From the NCBI GenBank assembly GCA_951406725.2, contig OX597825.1, positions 13,082,001 through 13,146,000 on the forward strand: 64,000 nucleotides of DNA, read 5' to 3'. The notes beneath the pieces are model-generated. The model searched no databases. It saw only the letters and a program-made list of their open reading frames with translations, and was not told the DNA's origin. This document shows, piece by piece, positions 341 through 52,477 of this stretch. The DNA is from Octopus vulgaris. Taxonomy: Eukaryota. Made by a program: the position numbers and the translations under genes. Numbering within the stretch: position 1 is the first letter of the stretch; each line of letters opens with the position of its first letter.

Positions 341-411
341 TGTGAGAAATCATAAACACACATATATAGGTTCTCACACATACACATTTACACAAGCAAA
401 CACACGGCTGC

Positions 412-470
<59 letters not shown>

Positions 471-716
471 CCGAAATTGCTAAGATGATCCGGTTCCCGA
501 CTGAAGATTAGAGGCTTCGAATGTTTTTTTGTGTCGTCTCTTTGTGTGTTTTTCCGTTCTTGTCCCATTTTGTAATTTATATTTAATTTAGATATATATA
601 TATATATATATATAGTTAATCCAAACATGAAAACACAAAGAGAAAACACAACAACGCGAGGACGTGGAACAAATATAGTATTATTTGGACGCTCAGGAAA
701 GAAGGGAAGAAGGAGG

Positions 717-752
717 GCTTTACGTTTCGAGCGGAGCTCTTCGTCAGAAACA
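717..752 (-). ncRNA. Minimal type I hammerhead ribozyme-like motif, inverted copy
   Basis: Minus strand reads gttt-CUGACGA-a-gagc(ucc)gcuc-GAAACGUA-aagc. Confidence 0.6.
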
Positions 753-854
753 TAGGATAAGGTAAGATGGAGGAAAAAAATGTGACCGCGTGTGTACCGT
801 TGGCGATTTTTTTTTTCCTCCGTCTTCCCTTCTCTGGATCTTTCCTTTTCCTAT

Positions 855-889
855 GTTTCTGATGAAGAGCTCCGCTCGAAACGTAAAAC
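855..889 (+). ncRNA. Minimal type I hammerhead ribozyme-like motif
   Basis: gttt-CUGAUGA-a-gagc(ucc)gcuc-GAAACGUA-aaac. Stem I is guuu/aaac, stem II is gagc/gcuc, palindromic ACGU replaces stem III, and cleavage is predicted after 885. Confidence 0.7.
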
Positions 890-1077
890 CCTCCTTCTTC
901 CCTTCCTTCTAGAGCGTCCAAATAATACTATATTTGTTCCACGTCCTCGCGTTGTTGTGTTTTTTCTTTGTGTTTTCAAGTTTGGATTAACTTCATTCAA
1001 AATGTGACCGCGTGTGTACCGGCGGCGATTTTTTTTTCCTCTGTCTTCCCTCTTCTCTGGATCTTTCCTTTTCCTAT

Positions 1078-1112
1078 GTTTCTGACGAAGAGCTCTGCTC
1101 GAAACGTTAATC
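1078..1112 (+). ncRNA. Minimal type I hammerhead ribozyme-like motif, second tandem copy
   Basis: gttt-CUGACGA-a-gagc(ucu)gcuc-GAAACGUU-aauc, with one stem I mismatch. The core starts 223 nt after the previous one. Confidence 0.6.
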
Positions 1113-1460
1113 CCTCCTTCTTCTCATCCTTCCTGAGCGTCCAAAGAATACTATATTTGTTCCACGTCCTCGCGTTGTTGTGTTTTCTCTTTGTGTTTTC
1201 ATGTTTGGATTAACTATATATATATAACTCCCAGTTCCATGCGTGTTGAATGGCCGTTGTTTTTAAATAAAACGAAATGATGTAAGGAGAGCGAGATAAT
1301 TGAAGTCTGCTTTATGGTCAGCGTGGTTAATACAAAACTAGTTTCACGTTCAATGGAAATAAATTTGATTTAATCTAAATAAGTACAAACTACGATATTC
1401 AGTTGTATATTCCATATTTTGTGAGAAAATATGCATAGCTTTAAAATATATTTATCTTCG

Positions 1461-1600
1461 ATCTATGCACATCGATTCGTGATTCAAGATATACAATATT
1501 TTAAAATAATAGAAGAGAGAGAAGTCGTGCTTCTTCGTTCTTAGTCGAACACGCTTCAGTGACAGATTACAAGCGTGTTTGACTATGAAAGAAAAGCATG

Positions 1601-1636
<36 letters not shown>

Positions 1637-1676
1637 CTATTTTAAAATATTGTATATTACGAATCGATGTGGATAA
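1461..1676. repeat. Long imperfect inverted repeat (foldback or MITE-like)
   Basis: ~95-105 bp arms (catcgattcgt...atatacaatattttaaaata...agtcgaacacgctt versus aagcgtgtttgact...tattttaaaatattgtatat...acgaatcgatg) around a ~14-nt loop. Confidence 0.8.
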
Positions 1677-1970
1677 ATGGAGGACACTCTGCTAACTAGC
1701 TGTCTCATTTAATTACACACACACACGCACACGTGTACAAATGTACACACTCATGCATACACACGCAAACAGGCAGACACATTTAGACACATAAATCGGT
1801 GCGCGTGTGTCTGTGGTTTTATGCGATTTGGTGTACTGTACTATGGCCGTTTGTCAATTACACATTGATAATGTAAGTACTGAGGCAGAAATCATTACTA
1901 GAATCGATACGCTTGACTAAATACTCGAAGGTTGTGCCTCTTGTAAAACAGTAAATGAATAACAGGAGGA

Positions 1971-2015
<45 letters not shown>

Positions 2016-2087
2016 AATATAAGTATATAAATATATGTATATATATATATATATGTACGTATATATATATAGTTAGATATATGTATA

Positions 2088-2172
<85 letters not shown>

Positions 2173-2455
2173 ATATATATATGCATATATATGTATGTAT
2201 ATATGCATATAAGTAATATGTAGATATGTACGTATATATGTATATAATTATGTGTATCTATATCTATCTATCTATCCATACATACATACATACATGCATA
2301 CATACATATATACACACACATATATAAAACCATTATATTACGATATACGCCTTGTAGTATCCGGTTTGAAGCCCATTGGCAAGTATCGGCTGACATATGT
2401 CATCAACAGTTTGGAGGCATATGTACTACTGGATATTTCCTTTGTTTCTCTCCCC

Positions 2456-2494
<39 letters not shown>

Positions 2495-2621
2495 TACACA
2501 CACACTTACAAAAAAAAATTAAAAATAAAAATATATATATATTAGATAAACTAACTTTGAAATACATGTATGAATGCATGTATGTATATATATATATATA
2601 TATGTGTGTGTGTATATATAC

Positions 2622-2822
2622 ATATCATTCGCAATGACGGATCGCTAGCCACCACACATTCTTTATTTTCACTCCTTGTTTCTTTCTGTGTTCCTTTCTG
2701 TGGAAGAGCGTCGGCTCGAAACGTTTAAGACTTTTTCACTTCCCGAGCGTCATACTAATACATCTGTTTGTTGTCTACATCACTTGTCTTCGTCTTTTGT
2801 TTTTTTGTGAATTCTCCCCTTA
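2622..2822 (+). mobile_element. Short hammerhead-like element between microsatellites, related to 615-1214
   Basis: ttt-CTGTGGA-a-gagc(gtcg)gctc-GAAACGTT at ~2695-2731. The body is homologous to 29627-29813 and 52233-52423. Confidence 0.6.
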
Positions 2823-3879
2823 CATATATATATATATTCATATGTATGCTTCTTTTGGGGATGTATGATATATTGACGATATATGTGTGTGTGTGTGCGT
2901 GTGCGTGTGTGTGTGTTGTTAATCTTGTAACGAGGGATCTTCACGACAATCTCTAACGGTCAGTTTCTCTCTAACTGTACAGCGATTCGATGTGTAAAGT
3001 CAAAGTGAGACAGTGTTTATTAGAAAGAGAAATGTAAATGTGAAAAACAACGTTACTTAAATATACACAGCGACATGAAAACAAATTTAATAGTTAGTCT
3101 GAATGGGTTTGCCATTACATAAATATATGTGCGAATGTCAATGCCTTTGCCGTGTCAACTTCCGGCGTAGTGCCAACCAGCAGTGCAACACATTCTGCCG
3201 AACATGAAAAATGACGTTGTTTACAAAAGAAAAAGAAAATGGCTCGAATTCTTATTTCTCAAGGACGCCAAAATGCGAAATGATCCATAGTTGTTTGTCC
3301 TGTATTGGCTGAAAATTGTGTCAAAATAAAGGCACGTGATATGCAGGGACGAAGGCAATCTGGAGTTCATTTTCGCCAGCGTGTTTGAGAAGGAAATGCA
3401 AGCTTGTATTCATTGGATAAAACCAGTCATGTGATGTACAAGACTAAAGACATTGTTTGCACCACATTTATGAGTCAAAACTGAATATTTGAATTATCTC
3501 CTACACTGTAATTACTTCCAAGCTTCACAAATATCAATTTCCCTTCCTCCTTCAGCACTTTGCAGCTCCGCTATTCCCCCACGGCATCAGATTTGTGGCT
3601 TCATCATCATGTAAAATGTTCTTCTCGTTCTTCTTTTCTGTCTCCCTTCCTTTTCTCTTTTTCTTTCACAAACTCATCCTCTTCAGCTTCCTCCTGTTTC
3701 GCTTTCTTTATCTTCCACTTCTCCTCTTCTTCTGCTCCTCTTCCTTCCCGTCTCTTCTACTTCATAATTTTCTCATTATCGCCATCTTCCTCATCCGCCT
3801 CCCCTTCCTTTTAGCCTTTTCATCATTACCCTCTTCCTCCTTAAACTCGTAATTATCTTTCGTTTCTTGCTTCTACCGT

Positions 3880-4894: not shown

Positions 4895-5310
4895 ATAAGG
4901 TGGCGAGCTGGCAGAAACGTTAGCACGCCGGGCGAAATGCTTAGCGGTATTTCGTCTGCCGCTACGTTCTGAGTTCAAATTCCGCCGAGGTCGACTTTGC
5001 CTTTCATCCTTTCGGGGTCGATTAAATAAGTACCAGTTACGCACTGGGGTCGATATAATCGACTTAATCCGTTTGTCTGTCCTTGTTTGTCCTCTCTGTG
5101 TTTAGCCCCTTGTGGGTAGTAAAGAAATATTTCGTCTGCCGCTACTTCTGAGTTCAAATTCCGCCGAGGTCGACTTTGGCTTTCATCCATTCGGGGTCGA
5201 TTAAATAAGTACCAGTTACGAACTGGGGTCGATATAATCGAATTAATCCGTTTTGTCTGTCCTTGTTTGTCCTCTCTGTGTTTAGCCCCTTGTGGGCAGT
5301 AAAGAAATAG
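4895..5310 (+). mobile_element. SINE family B dimer (one head plus two bodies) with 17-bp TSD
   Basis: tRNA-like head ggcgagctggcagaaacgttagc...gagttcaaattcc, body repeated twice. gtaataattgaaggata is duplicated at 4878-4894 and 5311-5327. Confidence 0.9.
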
Positions 5311-9492: not shown

Positions 9493-10125
9493 ATGCCATG
9501 TACAAAAGAAGACTTGGAACTGTTCGAATTTCAAAGAAGTCGTATTGTGAATCAATCTGAAGGTGAACTAAGTCAGCGTAAAATCGCAGCAAACCTTGTG
9601 ATCCCTCTTTCTACTGTTAATAGAGAGTGATCGTGCAATTCACCAAGGAGATGAAGGAGTCATCATCACCTCGTTCAGGTCGATCAGGGCCCTCTGGCAG
9701 GACCCTTCGCTTTGTTAAGAGAAGTGTAGAGGATAATCCTCGTTGCAAGGCCTCTGATACAGCAGAACAAGTTGATGTCAGTCCCAAAACAGCTGTCAGG
9801 TATCTCCACAAATTTGGTTACTATGACAGAGCAGCAAGAAAGAAGCCACTTCTTCGACCATCCAGTATCAAGCGTAGAAACGATTGGGCCAGTGAGATGG
9901 TGGAGACACCACTAACATTTTAGACCATATTCTCTGATGAGTCCAGATGTCCTGTAATTTGTGACAGTGGTCGAGTGTTGACCTGGAGACTCTGTGATCA
10001 GGAATTTGATGTGAAAAGAGTGCAGCCAACAATGAAACACAGCGGCTATTCTGTGATGGTCTGGAGAGCAATTTGGAGCAATGGTCTATCAGAGCTGGTG
10101 GTGTATGAGGGAAATACAAACTCAG
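9493..10125 (+). pseudogene. Tc1-family transposase pseudogene, N-terminal two thirds
   Basis: ATG at 9493. Paired-like HTH ([18 protein letters not shown]), RSGRS, ARKKPLL, IFSDESR and KHSGYSVMVW. Frameshift at ~9624 and stop at ~9921. Confidence 0.9.
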
Positions 10126-14151: not shown

Positions 14152-14914
14152 CTTTCTACTCTAGGCACAAGGCCGGTAAGATTTGGGGACTAGCAAGTCG
14201 ATTATATCGACCCCCAGTACGCAACTGGTACTTAATTTATCGACCCCGAACGGATGAAAGGCAAAGTCGAACTCGGCGGAATTTGAACTTGGAACATAAA
14301 GACAGACGAAATACCTATTCCTTTACTACCCCCACAAGGGGCTAAACACAGAGAGGACAAACAAGGACAGACAAACGGATTTAGTTGATTATATCGTCCC
14401 TAGTGCGTAACTGGTACTTATTTAATCGACCCCGAAAGGATGAAAGGCAAAGTCGACCTCGGCGGAATTTGAACTTAGAACGTAAAGACAGACGAAACAC
14501 CTATTTCTTTACAACACCCACAAGGGGATAAACACAGAGAGGACAAACAAGGACAGACAAACGGATTAAGTCGATTATATCGTCCCTAGTGCGTAACTGG
14601 TACTTATTTAATCGACCCCGAAAGGATGAAAGGCAAAGTCGACCTCGGCGGAATTTGAACTTAGAACGTAAAGACAGACGAAATACCTATTTCTTTACTA
14701 CCCCCACAAGGGGCTAAACACAGAGAGGCCAATCAAGGACAGACAAACGGATTAAGTCGATTATATCGTCCCTAGTGCGTAACTGGTACTTATTTAATCG
14801 ACCCCGAAAGGATGAAAGGCAAAGTCGACCTCGGCGGAATTTGAACTCAGAACGTATCCGCAGACGAAATACCGCTAAGCATTTCGCCTGGCGTGCTAAC
14901 GTTTCTGCCAGCTC
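14152..14914 (-). mobile_element. SINE family B tetrameric array (one head, three type-1-tail bodies, one type-2-tail body)
   Basis: ~186-bp units with junctions gaaa(t/c)ac|ctatt at ~14314, ~14500 and ~14686. Single head at 14870-14914. Confidence 0.92.
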
Positions 14915-21477: not shown

Positions 21478-22693
21478 CCTTTTCTACTATAGTCACAAGG
21501 TCTGAAATTTGCAAGGAGGGAACTAGTCGATTACATCAACCCCAGGGTGTAAATAGTGCATATTTCATCGACTCCGAAAGGATAAAACGCAATGTCGACC
21601 GACGCGGAATTTGAACTCAGAACGCAGAGACAACGAACTGCTGGAAACCAGTTTGCCCAGCGTGCTAACGATACTGCCAAATTGTTGCCTACATAACAAT
21701 AATGACTTTTTCTACTCTAGGCGCAAGCACCTACATTTTGGGAGAGGGGTCCAGTCGATTAGATCGACCCCGGTACACAGCTGGTCCTTAATTTATCGAC
21801 ACTGAAAAAATGAAAGGCAAAGTCGACCTCGGCGGAACTTGAACTCCAAACGTAAAGAAAGAAGGAATACCTATTTCTTTACTACCCACACAGGGAGGAC
21901 AAACAAGGTCAGACAAACGGATTAAGTCGATAAGATCGGCTCCAGTGCGTAACTGGTACTTATTTAATCGACCCCGAAAGGATGAAAGGCAAAGTCGACC
22001 TCGACGAAATTTGAACTCAGAACGTAACGGCAGACGAAATACCGCTCAGCATTTTGCCCGACGTGCTAACGTTTCTGCCAGCTCGCCGCCTTTCATAACA
22101 ATAATAACCTATTCTTCTCTAGGCACAAGGCCCGAAATTTTGGGCGGGTGAGACAGTCGATTAGGTCGACCCTAGTACGCAAGTGATACTTAATTTAACG
22201 ACCCTGAAATAATAAAAGGCAAAGTCGACCTCGGCGGAATTTGAACTCAGAACGTAGCGGTAGACGAAATACCTATTTATTTACTACCCACAAGGGGCTA
22301 AACACAGAAAAGACAAACAATGACAAACAAATGGATTAAGTCGATTATATCGAGCCCAGTGCGTAACTGGTACTTATTTAATCGACCCCGAAAGGATGAA
22401 AGGCAAAGTCGACCTTGGCGGAATTTGAACTCAGAACGTAAAGACAGACGAAATACCTATTTCTTTACTACCCACAAGGGGCTAAAAACATAGAGGGGAC
22501 AAACAAGGACAGACATAGGTATTAAGTCGTAAACATTGACCCCAGTGCGTAACTGGTACTTAATTTAACGACCCCGAAAGAATGAAAGGCAAAGTCGACG
22601 TCGGCGGAATTTGAACTCAGAACGTAACGGCAGACGAAATACGGCTATGCATTTCGCCCGGTGTGCTAACGTCTCTGTCAGCTCACCACCTTT
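21478..22693 (-). mobile_element. Cluster of three head-to-tail SINE B insertions (monomer 21478-21690, dimer 21707-22093, trimer 22110-22693)
   Basis: Three heads and six bodies. Blocks are separated by copies of taacaataa(t/c)-like spacer (taacaataataac). Confidence 0.9.
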
Positions 22694-29626: not shown

Positions 29627-29628
<2 letters not shown>

Positions 29629-29810
29629 GAAAGTTTACGAAGATAAACAAAAGACGAAGGCATGTGGAGTATAAACAAACAAATGTATTAGTATAGCGCT
29701 CAGGAATAGAAAAAGATTTTACGGTTCGAGCCTACGCTCTTCGACAGAAAGATACACAGAAAAAAACAAGGAGAGAGGAAAAAATGCGTGTAGGAGTTAA
29801 TGATCTATCA

Positions 29811-29813
<3 letters not shown>
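29627..29813 (-). mobile_element. Short hammerhead-like element inside (TA)n
   Basis: Minus strand ucuuu-CUGUCGA-a-gagc(guag)gcuc-GAACCGUA-aaau at 29715-29752. (TA)n on both sides. Confidence 0.65.
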
Positions 29814-36517: not shown

Positions 36518-37232
36518 TCCTCATCTCTTAAATATAGAACTACAGGAGTGGCTGTGTGGTAAGTAGCTTCTTACCAGACAGACGTGTTGTTTTTTGCTCC
36601 TGCAAATGTCACGTGTTTGAACGTGAAATGTTGAACTTTTGACTCGGTGACAGGTAAGACGTTCTGTATTTTTAGAAGCATAGTGAAGTTTATTGCTTGC
36701 TTAATGTTATTTAGCAGTTAACGTTATCTAGCATTAATATTTTTTTGCGGGTAATAGACTTCACTTTACTTCAGATATATTTCTCTGCCTGTTGTCGTGT
36801 CTAAGGTCTCACTCTTTAGTGAGAATTGTGCTTTTTGAGGAGGCGTAGCCCCTCCGCAAAAATTAATTTGTTTGCTTGTGTTTTACTACTTCGCAAGAAA
36901 ATTATAAAAATAAGCCACTATTGGATTACCTTTCGGACCCATTTTTGTGGAGGTTGTGTTGCAGTTGCGGCGTTCCAGGTTCAACCCAGGCCGGGAGTAC
37001 CGCAAGGCCAGAATATTTTTGCTGTGTTTTTTCTGTTTATTAACTTTCTTTTGAACTTCATTTAACCCCCCCCTTTTGTTTTTTTTTCTTTATTGCGACT
37101 TTCCGTTAATTTCTTCCCTTCTGTTGTGCTTTCTCCTTTTTGTTTTTTCAAAAATCTATCAAATTTTATTTAGAATTTTGAACTTTTTTCTTCCTGCTTT
37201 TGAGTTTAATTTGAATATATTTTTAAAAAAAC

Positions 37233-38477
37233 ATGGCAATGAAAAATAACAAAATTTTGGAGTGGGAAATCATACCACCCAAAAAGTGGTTAAAAGACCG
37301 TGAAGATAGGACGGTGGTGTTGAGAACCTACTCCAAGGCACTTGACACCATCGCCCTATTCGAAAAGACGGCAATTGAGGAGGAGTTGGAAGAGTATTTG
37401 CCAACAATTAAATTCATTTCCAGGGGTGTCGAATATGCAACGGTGTGGTTGCTATTTGACACCCCTGAAGAGGCTTGCATATTTGCTAGCAAACCCTTGG
37501 AGGGTAAGGAAATCTTATTCCTGCCCACGTACAGAAAAAAGAAATTGATGAAAGCTTGGATCTGCGGACTGCCACCCGACATAGAACCCGAGTGGATAGA
37601 GGAGACTATCCGCCGGGGTCTGGGTGACAGCGAAACTAAGCTCCTCAATGTAAAAGTTCTTCCTGCGGCTGCTTGGGTTGGGTCGAAAGCAATTTTGACT
37701 CTGTGGACACAATCAGCCAATCTGGTTCTTCCAGATTTTTTGAAAATGGCCGGGTGCAGGTACCCGGTGATGCTTGAGGGTCGCCCCCCTAAGTGTCATC
37801 GGTGCTTGGAGTCCGGCCACATAAAGAAGAACTGTCCTCGGGAACAAAATAGGATCCCGGAACAGTTAAGTAAAACCCCTCTAGAAGAGGGAACGATAAC
37901 GGCCGAGAAAGCAGAGGACTCCTCAAACAGAGGCCGAAAGAGGAAGGTGAGCAACAATGGGTGCTCACCAAAGGATAATAGGGATGAGGAGAGGAAGGCG
38001 AATCTTCCAGCCACGGAGGAGACGCACCCTCCCTCAGTTGAAAAGGGAAAAAAAAAGAAAAAGAGGAAGAAAAACGGGACATTACCGGCTGTCAGTGTAG
38101 CACCGGAATGTCGCGGAACTACGTCGGTTGGGGTTGTGCCACCGACAAGAGAAGGAATACCGTTGGCGGAAACTGTGCCGCCAACGAAAGAACTAAATGT
38201 GTTGGTCCTCTTCTATAGAGGAGGAGAAATTGAAAAAGTGATGGAAGAGCACTACAAGGGAGCACCTTTAGCCTTCACACAGGACCCCGAATGGCCTCCG
38301 CAGGTAGCTGTGGAGGCCGTGGCGTTCGACGTGACGCTAGGGCTAAAGGAGCTCAACGAAGATTATAACTTGGTCCCGGGCGACGCGAACTCGGAACTTG
38401 ACTACGTTCTGAGGGAGGCGTGGTTGATGGTGGAGGGCGCGGGCACAAGCTATTTCGAGGACGATATGTATTATTAG
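37233..38477 (+). CDS. Gag-like ORF1 nucleic-acid-binding protein with CCHC zinc knuckle (Tx1/L1-type), 414 aa
   Basis: Uninterrupted ORF. RRM-like WICGLPPDIEPEWI segment, EGRPPK-CHRCLESGHIKKNC (CX2CX4HX4C at 37794-37835), basic NLS-like KGKKKKKRKK and an acidic C-terminus. Confidence 0.88.
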   Translation: MAMKNNKILEWEIIPPKKWLKDREDRTVVLRTYSKALDTIALFEKTAIEEELEEYLPTIKFISRGVEYATVWLLFDTPEEACIFASKPLEGKEILFLPTYRKKKLMKAWICGLPPDIEPEWIEETIRRGLGDSETKLLNVKVLPAAAWVGSKAILTLWTQSANLVLPDFLKMAGCRYPVMLEGRPPKCHRCLESGHIKKNCPREQNRIPEQLSKTPLEEGTITAEKAEDSSNRGRKRKVSNNGCSPKDNRDEERKANLPATEETHPPSVEKGKKKKKRKKNGTLPAVSVAPECRGTTSVGVVPPTREGIPLAETVPPTKELNVLVLFYRGGEIEKVMEEHYKGAPLAFTQDPEWPPQVAVEAVAFDVTLGLKELNEDYNLVPGDANSELDYVLREAWLMVEGAGTSYFEDDMYY

Positions 38478-48432: not shown

Positions 48433-51400
48433 TGTAGATAAATAGATAGATGAGACGCCCTAGTTGCTCACTACATCGAGGACGAAAAGATTTCGAAACG
48501 TATCCGCAGATACATACATCCAGGGACAAATTCCCATCATGTCGCATTATTAATTTACGTTACCAAAAAATAGTAAATGTGAATCTAAAGTGTATCCACC
48601 TTTCTGAAGGAAACTCCGTTTCCTTATTAGGAACTAAACAGCCTTGGCCGTTTTATTAATTAGGGAATATTTCTTCGAAGAGAGCCAAGGGAAATCTAAA
48701 CAAACGGATTTCCTGCTGAAATCGAAACTAGCTAACGGATCCCGTTTAATATAAACTTATATCTTACTTCCCAGTCTGTAGTTAAATATTCGCTGATTAA
48801 TCATTAAATGATACTCCTGATGAAGGAGACAATTTTTTATAGCAACACGCTAAAAAAGAATTTACGAAGATTCACAAAGAGTTTAGAAAACATTTTCAGG
48901 TACTTTTATAGCAAATAATAGTGATTTTATATAATATATTTTAATGTGAGAATTAAAACTTTTTTTCAGTGTCTTCTATTTATTCTGCTTCATGCAATAG
49001 TTTTAGAGCGCAAAATATATTTTGACAAGTCAGCATGTTTCATTAAGAAAGTGTTCAGACCGGAGAATTATATATAGGTCGCATGGACTACGATAATGTT
49101 TATTTTATGAAAATGTCCTTAAGAAAAAATGTTGCCATTGTCTGCTGACTATCATGTCAGCATGTTGGCAGTAGCCGAGCACCATCTTATTGAAACTAAT
49201 GGTATTGTAAAATGGTAAATCCTTCTGAGAATTATCATTGGAATCAGTGGAACATCTTCATACAAAGCAGAACATTTTTAGTGGAGCAGATACAGCAATT
49301 TCTTCTTACAGCAAAAAAGTTCCTGCTGACTATTGTTGTCCTGAACATATCCGCCGTGAATAGACTCGTGATGCGTACTGTAGCTTATACATTTAACGTG
49401 GTTCATTTTTACAGCAGTCAGCCATTTTTACTGACGATGACAACACATTTAATGATTAGAATATAAAATAGCTAAAACATATTCGCATATGCAGGAAATA
49501 AAAATACAATATCAGTCAAAAATCATTGTCGGCAGACATTTACAAAGAAGAATAGTTTTTATTTTTTATTTTCTTAATATTTTTTACTTTGCCACTGTAA
49601 AGTTTAGTTTCTTCATAAATTCGTGTTATAAATACGGAGTCTTTTCTATACCTTGGAGGATTTCAGTCACTGAGTTGGGAAACAGGTATGTCTTGGCTTA
49701 AGATGTCCGCTTTGCTTCTGTATTATTTCGGCTTTAATGCCGCCCTCCGTCCGGTAGTTTAGAATTATCTACCTGTTGACTAAATCTCGTGAATTACTTG
49801 ACAGAAACCACTCCAAACGACAGCTCCTGTTTTGAAGTAGCGGACTTAATTCGCCGCTCGTTTTAACATCATTATCTGACCCTTAGGCGCCTCCTTAGAG
49901 AATACAATTTGTTGATTAGATTCAGTAATCTTCCCTTTTTCGTTCCAAAGGTCACAGAAACCCTGAAATCACCATGGAAGTTGCTCTTACTCTTCTAGCA
50001 ATAATACTTTGAAGAGAAACACTTTAAAAGAATTTTTGTCTGTTTTGTTAATCTCGCTTCTTTATCCAGCGGTTATTTTCTTGATCTTGAAAAGCAGAAA
50101 GGAAAAATCAAATTAGGTTTCATTAGGACTAACACTAAATGACATTTCTGACCATCACACAATTTCTGCCATACGTTGTCATTATATGCAGTTGTGAAAG
50201 AGAGAGATACAGAGAGCGTACATCTGCTCGTGTATATTTCGCCATGATTCCGACAACCAAATTCCTCTCACAAAACCTTGTTCCATACGAGGCTATTGAA
50301 GAAGATGCATTCTCAATTGCGCTACACTGTTGAACCAAACTCAAAAAAACATGCAATTTTGGAGGTAAATTCTTAAACAAAGAACAAGTGCCTTAATTTC
50401 TTTTCGACGCTAAAAACCGCATTCAAAGATACAGCGAAAGACATCCAAAAATGCCTGTATTGTTTTACTTCACGCCAGCATGGCTCTATATTAGTAAATT
50501 TACCGAGAAAGTTCTCTCTTATACTTCGATAGTTTTCCGAAAGGCTACGTTTCGCTGATGAGTCTGAAGAAAAGCGAAACGCTTCCGAAACTGCCTTTCC
50601 TATTTGCCGATAAACAATAATAACAATATGATAGTAATAATCGAATGATATTGCTTCATTTTCTTTCTTCATTTATGGCGTATATGACTATATTTCAGCA
50701 GGTAAATGTCCTAATTGTAAAATAACCTTTCACCTAGATTTTTTTCCCCTCTCAGTGCCACAGATACATAAATAACACCATCCTCATTTATTACGAATTT
50801 TACTGATTTTATAGACTTATCACCTACTTACATCGACTCTTACCGGTTCCAGCCAGCTGCCTGTTGTCATACATTCTAACATTCATTAATGTATCTGCAA
50901 TAGTTTTACACGACAACAATTTACTGATTTTCTAAATAAATAAATAAAGAAATAATGAAAGAAAGAAAGAAAGAAAGAAAGAAAACACGCTGTACTTCCA
51001 TAAAATATAATTAAGAATCACGTTCACAATTTTGTTTTACTATCTTTTTTTCGATATTTCATGTTTAGTTTACATATCTTATTTTCATCTTATTTTTTTA
51101 TCCATTTTTCATTTAATCTTGTTTTTATACGTTTATATTTGTCATTCTCTGTGCTTTGTTTTTATATATTTCTTGCCGTCTTTCGTTTTATTCGTAATTT
51201 ATTTTCTCATTTTTATATATAAAGTGTTCAATACATCATGATCAACAAGCAGAGCAGCACCGATATCACCTACAACTGTTCATCATAGGGGAGGCACAGC
51301 CCCCCAAAACTTCAGAAATCATGATGCACAGACGTATTTCATTTTACAGACGACAATCGTTAGCTTTTATCACGTGACCTCCTTTTGTTTCCTTTTCTGA

Positions 51401-51925: not shown

Positions 51926-52232
51926 TAGTGTAGTCGTGTTGCAAAATTTGACATATTAATTACCAGTATATCCTTTATATTGTATCAAAATTTCATGCAT
52001 CTATTTGTAAAGTTAAGGAAGTTATTAAAAATTGAAACTCATCAGTGACAATATGTAATCTTTTAAAATGTCTTATTGACGAGTCTCTTTTCTTGATTTC
52101 CCTGAAAAGAAGATTACATTGTTTTCCACCATTCCACCATTTTATTCCAGTGATATCTTCGAAACATGTGTCGGAAGTAAAAGAATTTGAATAAGACCTG
52201 CGTTTAACTCCATATATATATATATATATATA

Positions 52233-52419
52233 CGGGAAGCTTTATGAAAATAAACAAAAGACGAAGGCAGGTGGAATACAAACAAACAATTGTATTAGTA
52301 TGGCGCTCAGGAATATAAATAAAACAAGTCTTTTACGTTTCGAGCCTACGCTCTTCAACAGAAAGATACACAGAAAAGAAACAAGGAGAGAAAAAAAATG
52401 CGTGCAGAAGCTAGCGAAT

Positions 52420-52423
<4 letters not shown>
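52233..52423 (-). mobile_element. Short hammerhead-like element inside (TA)n
   Basis: Minus strand ucuuu-CUGUUGA-a-gagc(guag)gcuc-GAAACGUA-aaaga at 52329-52365, with a perfect 5-bp stem I. (TA)n on both sides. Confidence 0.7.

Positions 52424-52477
<54 letters not shown>

Follow-up and report, generated by a model that had tools for sequence, protein, structure and literature searches.

The interval 593-1226 of the window (the whole 64-kb stretch of Octopus vulgaris DNA that was analysed) contains three related copies of a 223-nt unit, and these very probably represent an insertion of the Penelope-like element (PLE) type that carries a genuine minimal-hammerhead motif. The full reading, to which we give a probability of about 0.6, is that a single insertion event produced the cluster, in which a PLE enzyme used in trans a short non-autonomous RNA, probably a linear one, and that the cluster is now in decay. 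Published precedents exist for tandem-plus-inverted PLE insertions, for (TA)n targeting, for minimal hammerheads and for a PLE hammerhead from an octopus. Coordinates of the features are listed in Table 1.

Table 1. Features of the three-copy cluster and of the related monomers in the window.
Feature	Position	Strand	Description	Evidence
(TA)11, left	593..614	.	Target microsatellite	Sequence
Copy A	615..780	-	Inverted, 5'-truncated; 3' end meets (TA)n at 615; starts inside the T-run of the unit	
Hammerhead of copy A	717..751	-	Minimal hammerhead; core from 747, H17 = A at 721, stem I 4 bp with one G-U	
Inversion junction	774..780	.	Head-to-head junction, A7 run	
Copy B	777..991	+	Tandem, without the first 7 nt of the unit	
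Hammerhead of copy B	855..889	+	Minimal hammerhead	
Copy C	992..1214	+	Full 223-nt unit, 43% GC, pyrimidine-rich	
Hammerhead of copy C	1078..1112	+	Minimal hammerhead; H17 = U at 1108 (family majority)	
Second conserved block	1130..1151	+	Contains GAGCG, 30-38 nt behind stem II	18/22 columns identical between families
(TA)6, right	1215..1226	.	Target microsatellite	Sequence; (TA)n loose ends in run X3
Monomer D	2621..2822	+	Sister family, core CUGUGGA (A6U), in (TA)n	
Monomer H	29627..29813	-	Sister family, core CUGUCGA (A6U), one more core change, in (TA)n	
Monomer E	52232..52424	-	Sister family, core CUGUUGA (A6U), 5-bp stem I, in (TA)n	

The cluster is ordered as (TA)11, an inverted partial copy A, copy B, copy C and (TA)6. 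Tandem Repeats Finder identified a repeat at 777-1215 with a period of 223, 2.0 copies and 92% matches, and inverted arms are present at 614-768/838-992 (155 nt, 94% alike) and at 603-768/1061-1226 (166 nt including TA, 95% alike). These results bear out the layout described in the first-pass annotation of this DNA, namely one inverted and two tandem copies at 223-nt spacing that are bounded by (TA)n, with an inverted arm of approximately 165 bp. The description of three copies of one unit holds in that the units are related, but A and B are incomplete, with A missing the first ~37 nt of the unit as well as 16 nt in an internal deletion between two TCTT microhomologies, and B missing the first 7 nt. 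The cluster has the 3' end of the unit on both of its outer sides, and this end passes directly into (TA)n 106 nt behind the cleavage site. Positions 777-780 are common to copy A (its T-run, on the minus strand) and the start of copy B, forming a 4-nt A/T microhomology. The first 7 nt of copy C (992-998) are a B-C junction piece of uncertain origin and the sole candidate at this junction for the 30-40-bp tail of PLEs.

Over the 155 columns shared by the copies, private changes number three in A, six in B (five without the boundary base) and five in C, and one column differs in all three. The pattern is star-like and pairwise identity is 90-94%, a result that speaks for copies which were alike at the start and then drifted by approximately 3% each, and against an artefact of assembly. 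PLE structures of this kind are described as troublesome for assemblers (PMC8557442), and none of the contigs placed on 963-1400, which do not include 615-962, spans the whole stretch as a single piece. A fold-back or duplicated read is nevertheless hardly credible, as the copies are 6-10% apart with private changes and the 16-nt deletion, the flanks outside (TA)n are unrelated, and the B-to-C junction is found in contigs of three runs. It is very unlikely that monomers inserted independently into one (TA)n or that a later local duplication took place, since there is no (TA)n between A and B or between B and C, B and C have no changes in common against A and the family majority at visible sites, all three copies carry a minority extra base, and there is microhomology at the inversion point. 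These points outweigh the abundance of the family, the presence of another element (468-592) in a TA neighbourhood where (TA)n is a hot target, and the difference of C from A and B at H17.

The standard insertion of EN+ PLEs described in the available text of Craig et al. 2021 (PMC8557442) combines a partial tandem with a neighbouring inverted copy that is 5'-truncated, and shows a bias for (TA)n. Both the partial tandem and the adjacent inverted, 5'-truncated copy are present here, so the earlier reading of the tandem and inverted (TA)n layout as a PLE insertion fits the published pattern. The cluster resembles insertions of the Neptune, Naiad and Hydra clades in its layout, its (TA)n target and a hammerhead near the 3' end, and it differs from EN+ PLEs in having no ORF and no identified 30-40-bp tail (PMC8557442). 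The same source attributes a hammerhead and (TA)n targeting to Hydra-1_Obim of Octopus bimaculoides, and it states that it is unclear what the hammerhead does in EN+ PLEs. The Hydra-clade hammerhead has a 3-4-bp stem III, whereas the motif of the cluster is without stem III and has a different sequence; because the Hydra clade has the full stem III and Naiads are described as lacking canonical hammerheads (PMC8557442), neither clade is an evident parent. The search for an autonomous partner gave none; by eye, neither the 3' end of Naiad_Obim nor the hammerhead of Hydra-1_oBim is like the unit. Among the papers listed by a literature search on octopus and hammerhead ribozymes, only Craig et al. 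2021 was relevant, and no paper on the 223-nt family was retrieved, which is possibly already catalogued, Repbase and Dfam lying outside the search. In the available part of the supplement of PMC13282606, 190 PLE families together make up 6.83% of the Octopus vulgaris assembly, and ribozymes are not mentioned there.

The locus is not an autonomous EN+ PLE, as it has no RT or GIY-YIG ORF and is closed on both sides by (TA)n. No RT or GIY-YIG Pfam domain was identified in 150 of the 167 complex frames of at least 62 aa in the 64-kb window (the 17 shortest were left out), and RT and GIY-YIG regex motifs gave no match in its six frames. The linkage to such ORFs raised by the first-pass annotation was therefore not found within the window. 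A protein-coding origin of the unit was rejected, with 150 of these 167 frames scanned. Rfam gave 0 matches in the window at the gathering threshold, and the 96 weak matches in 400-3000 include no hammerhead family, which neither confirms nor refutes the motif. A tRNA-like head, as in tRNA-derived SINEs, was not found in a weak test, with no tRNA called, no Rfam match and a T9 run near the 5' end; SINE heads often escape tRNA and Rfam tools. Other repeats in the window include tandem arrays of one SINE-like repeat, with 2-3.6 units of 179-186 nt, at 4948-5309, 14195-14873 and 21525-22642. We take this repeat to be an octopus SINE, and tandem SINE arrays are somewhat unusual in themselves. A Tc1/mariner transposase fragment is present at 9624-9920 (+) (PF01498, E 6.5e-11). 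A 416-aa open frame at 37227-38474 (+), unrelated to the cluster, shows a weak zf-CCHC match (E 0.0078, below the cut-off) and CCHC/ZCCHC3-like neighbours in the protein atlas (0.93); it probably represents ORF1 of a non-LTR element, although no ORF2 is seen downstream, where a 66-nt duplication follows.

The hammerhead cores lie at 747 (-), 859 (+) and 1082 (+), with the H17 cleavage base at 721 (-), 885 and 1108. The core CUGANGA ... GAAA ... UH is complete in all three copies, each of which has a 4-bp, G-C closed stem II with a 3-nt loop, an unpaired A between positions 9 and 10.1 (A866) and a G10.1-C11.1 pair (G867-C877, and equivalents). In copy B, stem I is formed by 855-858/886-889 and is followed by the core (859-865), the extra A (866), stem II (867-870/874-877), GAAA (878-881), the palindrome (881-884) and H17, which is A at 885. 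The ACGU palindrome (15.2-16.2) occurs at 881-884, at 1104-1107 and likewise in copy A, with no stable helix III. Stem I has 4 bp in copies A (one G-U) and B and only 2 contiguous pairs in copy C, where position 1111 departs from the family majority and weakens the stem. The pyrimidine-rich flanks are unable to extend the 4-bp helix I, and the 6-bp helix I and the loop 1-loop 2 contacts of canonical hammerheads are absent. Predicted folds of the 46-nt motif in the two tandem units have energies of -8.9 and -7.7 kcal/mol. A general minimal-hammerhead descriptor gave three matches in the window, against an average of 0.01 (at most 1) over 100 block-wise dinucleotide shuffles; the three matches count as one event because they are copies of one unit. 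The parts named in the first-pass annotation (core, stem II, GAAACGUH and a short stem I) were recovered in all three copies, with the reservation that stem I is reduced in C, and the extra A between core and stem II was absent from that description. Its assignment to the PLE minimal type I hammerheads with a palindrome agrees with the core, the G10.1-C11.1 pair and ACGU; judged from sequence, the motif is classed as a PLE-type minimal type I hammerhead in which all four emergent PLE features are matched.

The min-HHR class was defined by Cervera and De la Pena 2014 (PMC4209133), whose available text describes dispersed copies in the thousands per genome, pairs on opposite strands at a distance of 100-700 bp, and weak dimer activity. 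The motif of the cluster is like these metazoan PLE min-HHRs in its core, extra base, G10.1-C11.1 pair, palindrome, 4-5-bp helix I and mostly dispersed single copies. It is unlike them in that no PLE ORF is present in the window and a sister family carries U at position 6, and its 4-bp helix II with a 3-nt loop differs from the 7-8-bp helix II of the Schistosoma min-HHR families (PMC4209133). Three further sites of the window have hammerhead-like parts. A 125-nt element at 468-592 (+), located between (TA)26 and (TA)11, contains CUGAAGA and no full hammerhead; its T-rich tail is weakly like the tail of the unit, and the window holds no second copy of its head. At 17035-17006 (-), just behind (TA)n(GA)n, there is a decayed hammerhead-like motif of an unrelated family with a core, an imperfect stem II, ACGU and C at the cleavage base, which fails the strict descriptor. 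The region 50535-50595 is quasi-palindromic and has a hammerhead-like first core half on the plus strand and GAAACGUA on the minus strand.

A sister family is represented in the window by the monomers D, H and E, which are 187-202 nt long, flanked by (TA)n in each case, and 72-82% alike mutually; their likeness to copies A-C is 51-61%. A check of (TA)n flanks suggested in the first-pass annotation came out positive within the 64-kb window, where all four loci of both families lie in (TA)n and (TA)n makes up 5% of the sequence. Position 6 of the hammerhead core is normally an invariant A. In the sister family this position is U in all three copies, with stem II intact. A literature search for A6U in hammerheads returned, among the matches listed, one paper, on twisters, and Lunse et al. 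2016 may list an A6U variant. Between the families, 21 of 23 positions of the core and stem II are identical compared to 64 of 150 elsewhere (Fisher p 8e-6), a result that is supportive and not decisive because the alignment is anchored on the hammerhead itself and covers only two lineages (3 + 3 copies). One family has G-C as its outer stem I pair where the other has C-G, and this pair is kept in D and E and broken in H. Extra conservation of the core, named earlier as a check, is thus seen between the two families but is not visible among copies within the A-C family. The second conserved block at 1130-1151, which was chosen after the alignment had been inspected, is present with its equivalents in all six copies. 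It is able to pair with the 3' strand of stem II, with duplex energies of -7.3 to -9.3 kcal/mol, and the predicted pairing probability ranges from 0.003 to 0.96 depending on copy and window. From these predictions, the block could be a candidate ribozyme off-switch or protein-binding site.

Part of the stretch is carried by 20 of 24 listed public sequencing runs (9 studies, 4 organisms), none of which is recorded as RNA. Four runs (X3, X4, X8 and X23) were placed on 963-1400, with X8 guessed to be RNA. The matching contigs number 12,553 in X4, 3,519 in X8 and 9,472 in X3, and their summed depth is 106-1,756 at 963-992, 57,000-372,000 at 993-1007, 10^5-10^6 from there through 1217, 41,000-838,000 at 1218-1232 and 0-767 beyond 1232. 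The rise from bin 978-992 to bin 993-1007 is 157- to 817-fold. In three of the four runs the family is a dispersed repeat of high abundance whose ends are sharp, and 89 X3 contigs have loose ends made of (TA)n past 1226. The ratio of body to distal-flank depth in X4 is 27,696-fold, or 893-fold after division by 31 overlapping words; the copy number of the family is probably in the thousands, summed contig depth not being equal to copy number. Only 2 of 12,895,792 reads match in the raw-read DNA run X23, which bears the same species label as the best-matching run; provided that this label is correct, such a near-absence contradicts a high copy number. Scans for the exact pattern turned up 0 loci in viral contigs and likewise 0 in metagenome contigs.

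At the cleavage base the majority of the family carries U (A in 0.3-9.5%), and at 1111 it carries the base that pairs. The extra base at 1145-1146 is present in A, B and C and absent from 72-93% of the family depth, which places the three copies in one source lineage. Core variants within the family include U4C (5.5-17% of depth) and G12A (1-10%), and at least 5 of the 15 core positions are among the variants listed; this lack of extra core conservation within the family is expected for decay after insertion. U4C (position 1083) peaks in the run guessed to be RNA and may mark a subfamily. No strand-change joints are listed for the contigs on 963-1400, so the inversion is not demonstrated to recur in the family.

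In a rival account, each unit is what remains of the 3' end of a longer, autonomous PLE of the C-terminal EN+ kind (Neptune-like) with a truncation hotspot near 993-1003, and the same enzyme and mechanism would operate with no separate short family. We regard this as unlikely, though by no means far-fetched. The hammerhead lies approximately 100 nt from the 3' end, as it does in Hydra-1_oBim (position 2403 of 2507), 5' truncation is usual among PLE copies, and the contigs placed on 963-1400 do not reveal the sequence 5' of most copies. The starts of B and C, however, are within 7 nt of each other, the sister monomers are all 187-202 nt long, and no upstream loose end is common among those listed. 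Two single contigs also speak against it: one of 647 nt (depth 42.7, near single-copy) has 490 unrelated letters before 1001, and one from X3 has TA-rich letters before 996.

The first-pass annotation had offered a candidate retrozyme or Penelope pLTR, in which the paired hammerheads of B-C could cleave at 885 and 1108 and release a ~223-nt monomer able to circularise; as a model of an active non-LTR retrozyme, this would have the family spread by rolling-circle RT. In the available text of Li, Clavereau and Pollet 2026 (bioRxiv 10.64898/2026.07.22.740005), animal retrozymes are derived from PLE ends and 1 of 9 dimers cleaved; by the operational rule given there (at least two consecutive type I units, no ORF, <50% GC), B-C, with complete motifs in two consecutive units, would be classed as a retrozyme. 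The cluster is also like animal non-LTR retrozymes in its non-coding unit within 150-450 nt, its GC content below 50% (43%) and one type I hammerhead per tandem unit, and for these a PLE origin has been proposed and monomer-rich families occur (PMC7229834, bioRxiv 10.64898/2026.07.22.740005). In addition, the review PMC6765202 reports PLE hammerhead cleavage as dimers. The available text of Cervera and De la Pena 2020 (PMC7229834), however, ties retrozyme circles to canonical hammerheads and self-paired folds, from which the cluster departs with its minimal hammerhead, a family that is almost wholly non-tandem and a predicted circle that is unstructured.

The unit-to-unit junction, at which the proposed circle would also be closed, is measured by the depth at 963-992. 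Its share of the body depth is 0.04-0.12% in X4, 0.08-0.2% in X8 and 0.26-0.64% in X3, and the family is accordingly mainly non-tandem in the three contig runs. A B-to-C type junction is present in the contigs of all three and exceeds single-copy depth in X4 and X3, a point in favour of the retrozyme. The share in X8, the probable RNA run, nevertheless lies inside the DNA range of 0.04-0.64% and shows no enrichment, bearing in mind that the contigs of this run are blind to RNA ends or levels and that short circles may drop out. No clusters of molecule starts or stops were reported for 963-1400, a feature that contigs do not reveal. A circular template is endless, yet the depth falls 157- to 817-fold at the unit start. 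As a circle, 886-1108 is predicted to fold at -30.0 kcal/mol compared to -28.1 +/- 3.5 for shuffles (z -0.55), with 27 of 100 shuffles as good, and is thus no more structured than shuffles in these models. The rare junction, the absence of RNA enrichment and this lack of structure give no support to the proposed ~223-nt circle.

Folding of the longer RNAs points the same way in models without tertiary contacts and proteins. The predicted minimum of the B+C RNA (-77.0 kcal/mol) is a non-hammerhead duplex of the two motifs, and constraining it to the double hammerhead places it 23.7 kcal/mol above this minimum; for the isolated motif pair, the values are -27.7 for the minimum vs -3.9 kcal/mol for the double hammerhead. 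In plus-strand RNA through all three copies, arm A is predicted to pair with the 3' part of C and, at a probability of 0.999 for the base that was sampled, with hammerhead B. Since arm A would tie up hammerhead B, dsRNA and double cleavage are predicted to be mutually exclusive, and only an RNA starting within about 770-855 could keep both hammerheads free. Of the two outputs suggested earlier, the dsRNA of ~165 bp is predicted by the models but not together with release of a circle. Published retrozyme circles have canonical hammerheads, the nine dimers of which 1 cleaved in Li et al. are from Xenopus, and minimal motifs cut weakly. Three retrozyme features that were tested failed, namely the canonical hammerhead, tandem organisation and the self-paired circle, and we consider an active retrozyme at this locus improbable.

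The insertion of a short RNA by a PLE enzyme in trans, the reading preferred here, takes its assumed mechanism from the PAc Poseidon element of Anolis. According to the available text of Frangieh et al. 2024 (PMC11167929), the purified PLE protein makes nicks in both strands of AT-rich DNA and extends them, its RT starts at a fixed internal site and uses uncleaved RNA, hammerhead cleavage is not required, and the protein assists its own hammerhead. PAc Poseidon is autonomous and its hammerhead overlaps the start codon, whereas the cluster has no ORF and shows ACG at the matching core position in two of three copies (PMC11167929). At the octopus locus, a PLE enzyme (RT plus endonuclease) would have nicked both strands of the (TA)n tract. 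Primed at one nick, cDNA synthesis would begin at the fixed 3' start, which lies 106 nt behind the cleavage site, and yield copy C, after which the RT would jump to a 3' end again and yield copy B. The opposite nick would prime copy A, and the two cDNAs would then join head to head through the 4-nt A/T microhomology at 777-780. The template RNA would be uncleaved, as the copies span the cleavage site, and it was likely linear as a rule, since a circle would often run past the unit start and the sharp 5' edge indicates that this happens rarely. Copy C possibly came from a second template, given that H17 is A in A and B vs U in C.

The hammerhead itself is probably an inherited terminal motif of PLEs that was under selection in the source lineages, and cutting would require a second copy as partner and perhaps also the PLE protein. 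At 593-1226 it is likely idle, considering the drift of approximately 3% per copy and the predicted pairing of arm A with hammerhead B. A wider reading, which we put forward as speculative and think rather doubtful, is that in octopus-like genomes at least two related SINE-like families exist as fixed-length (~190-220 nt), linear, PLE-mobilised RNAs with thousands of copies, that both kept the minimal hammerhead and an off box pairing with stem II, and that one of them amplified with U at position 6. If this is true, the hammerhead fold would be a regulated or non-catalytic handle for the PLE protein and not a maker of circles, and the two families would be a natural substrate pair to test why PLEs keep hammerheads.

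The cluster probably works like a PLE-mobilised non-autonomous element whose motif belongs to the PLE minimal hammerheads. Its contribution is a further host family for a pattern that is already well described, and its main use is in repeat annotation. The sharp 5' end and the rare junction argue that RNA circles are not a necessary source of tandem hammerhead units, and the A6U sister family together with the conserved block at 1130-1151 offers a handle on whether catalysis matters for amplification.
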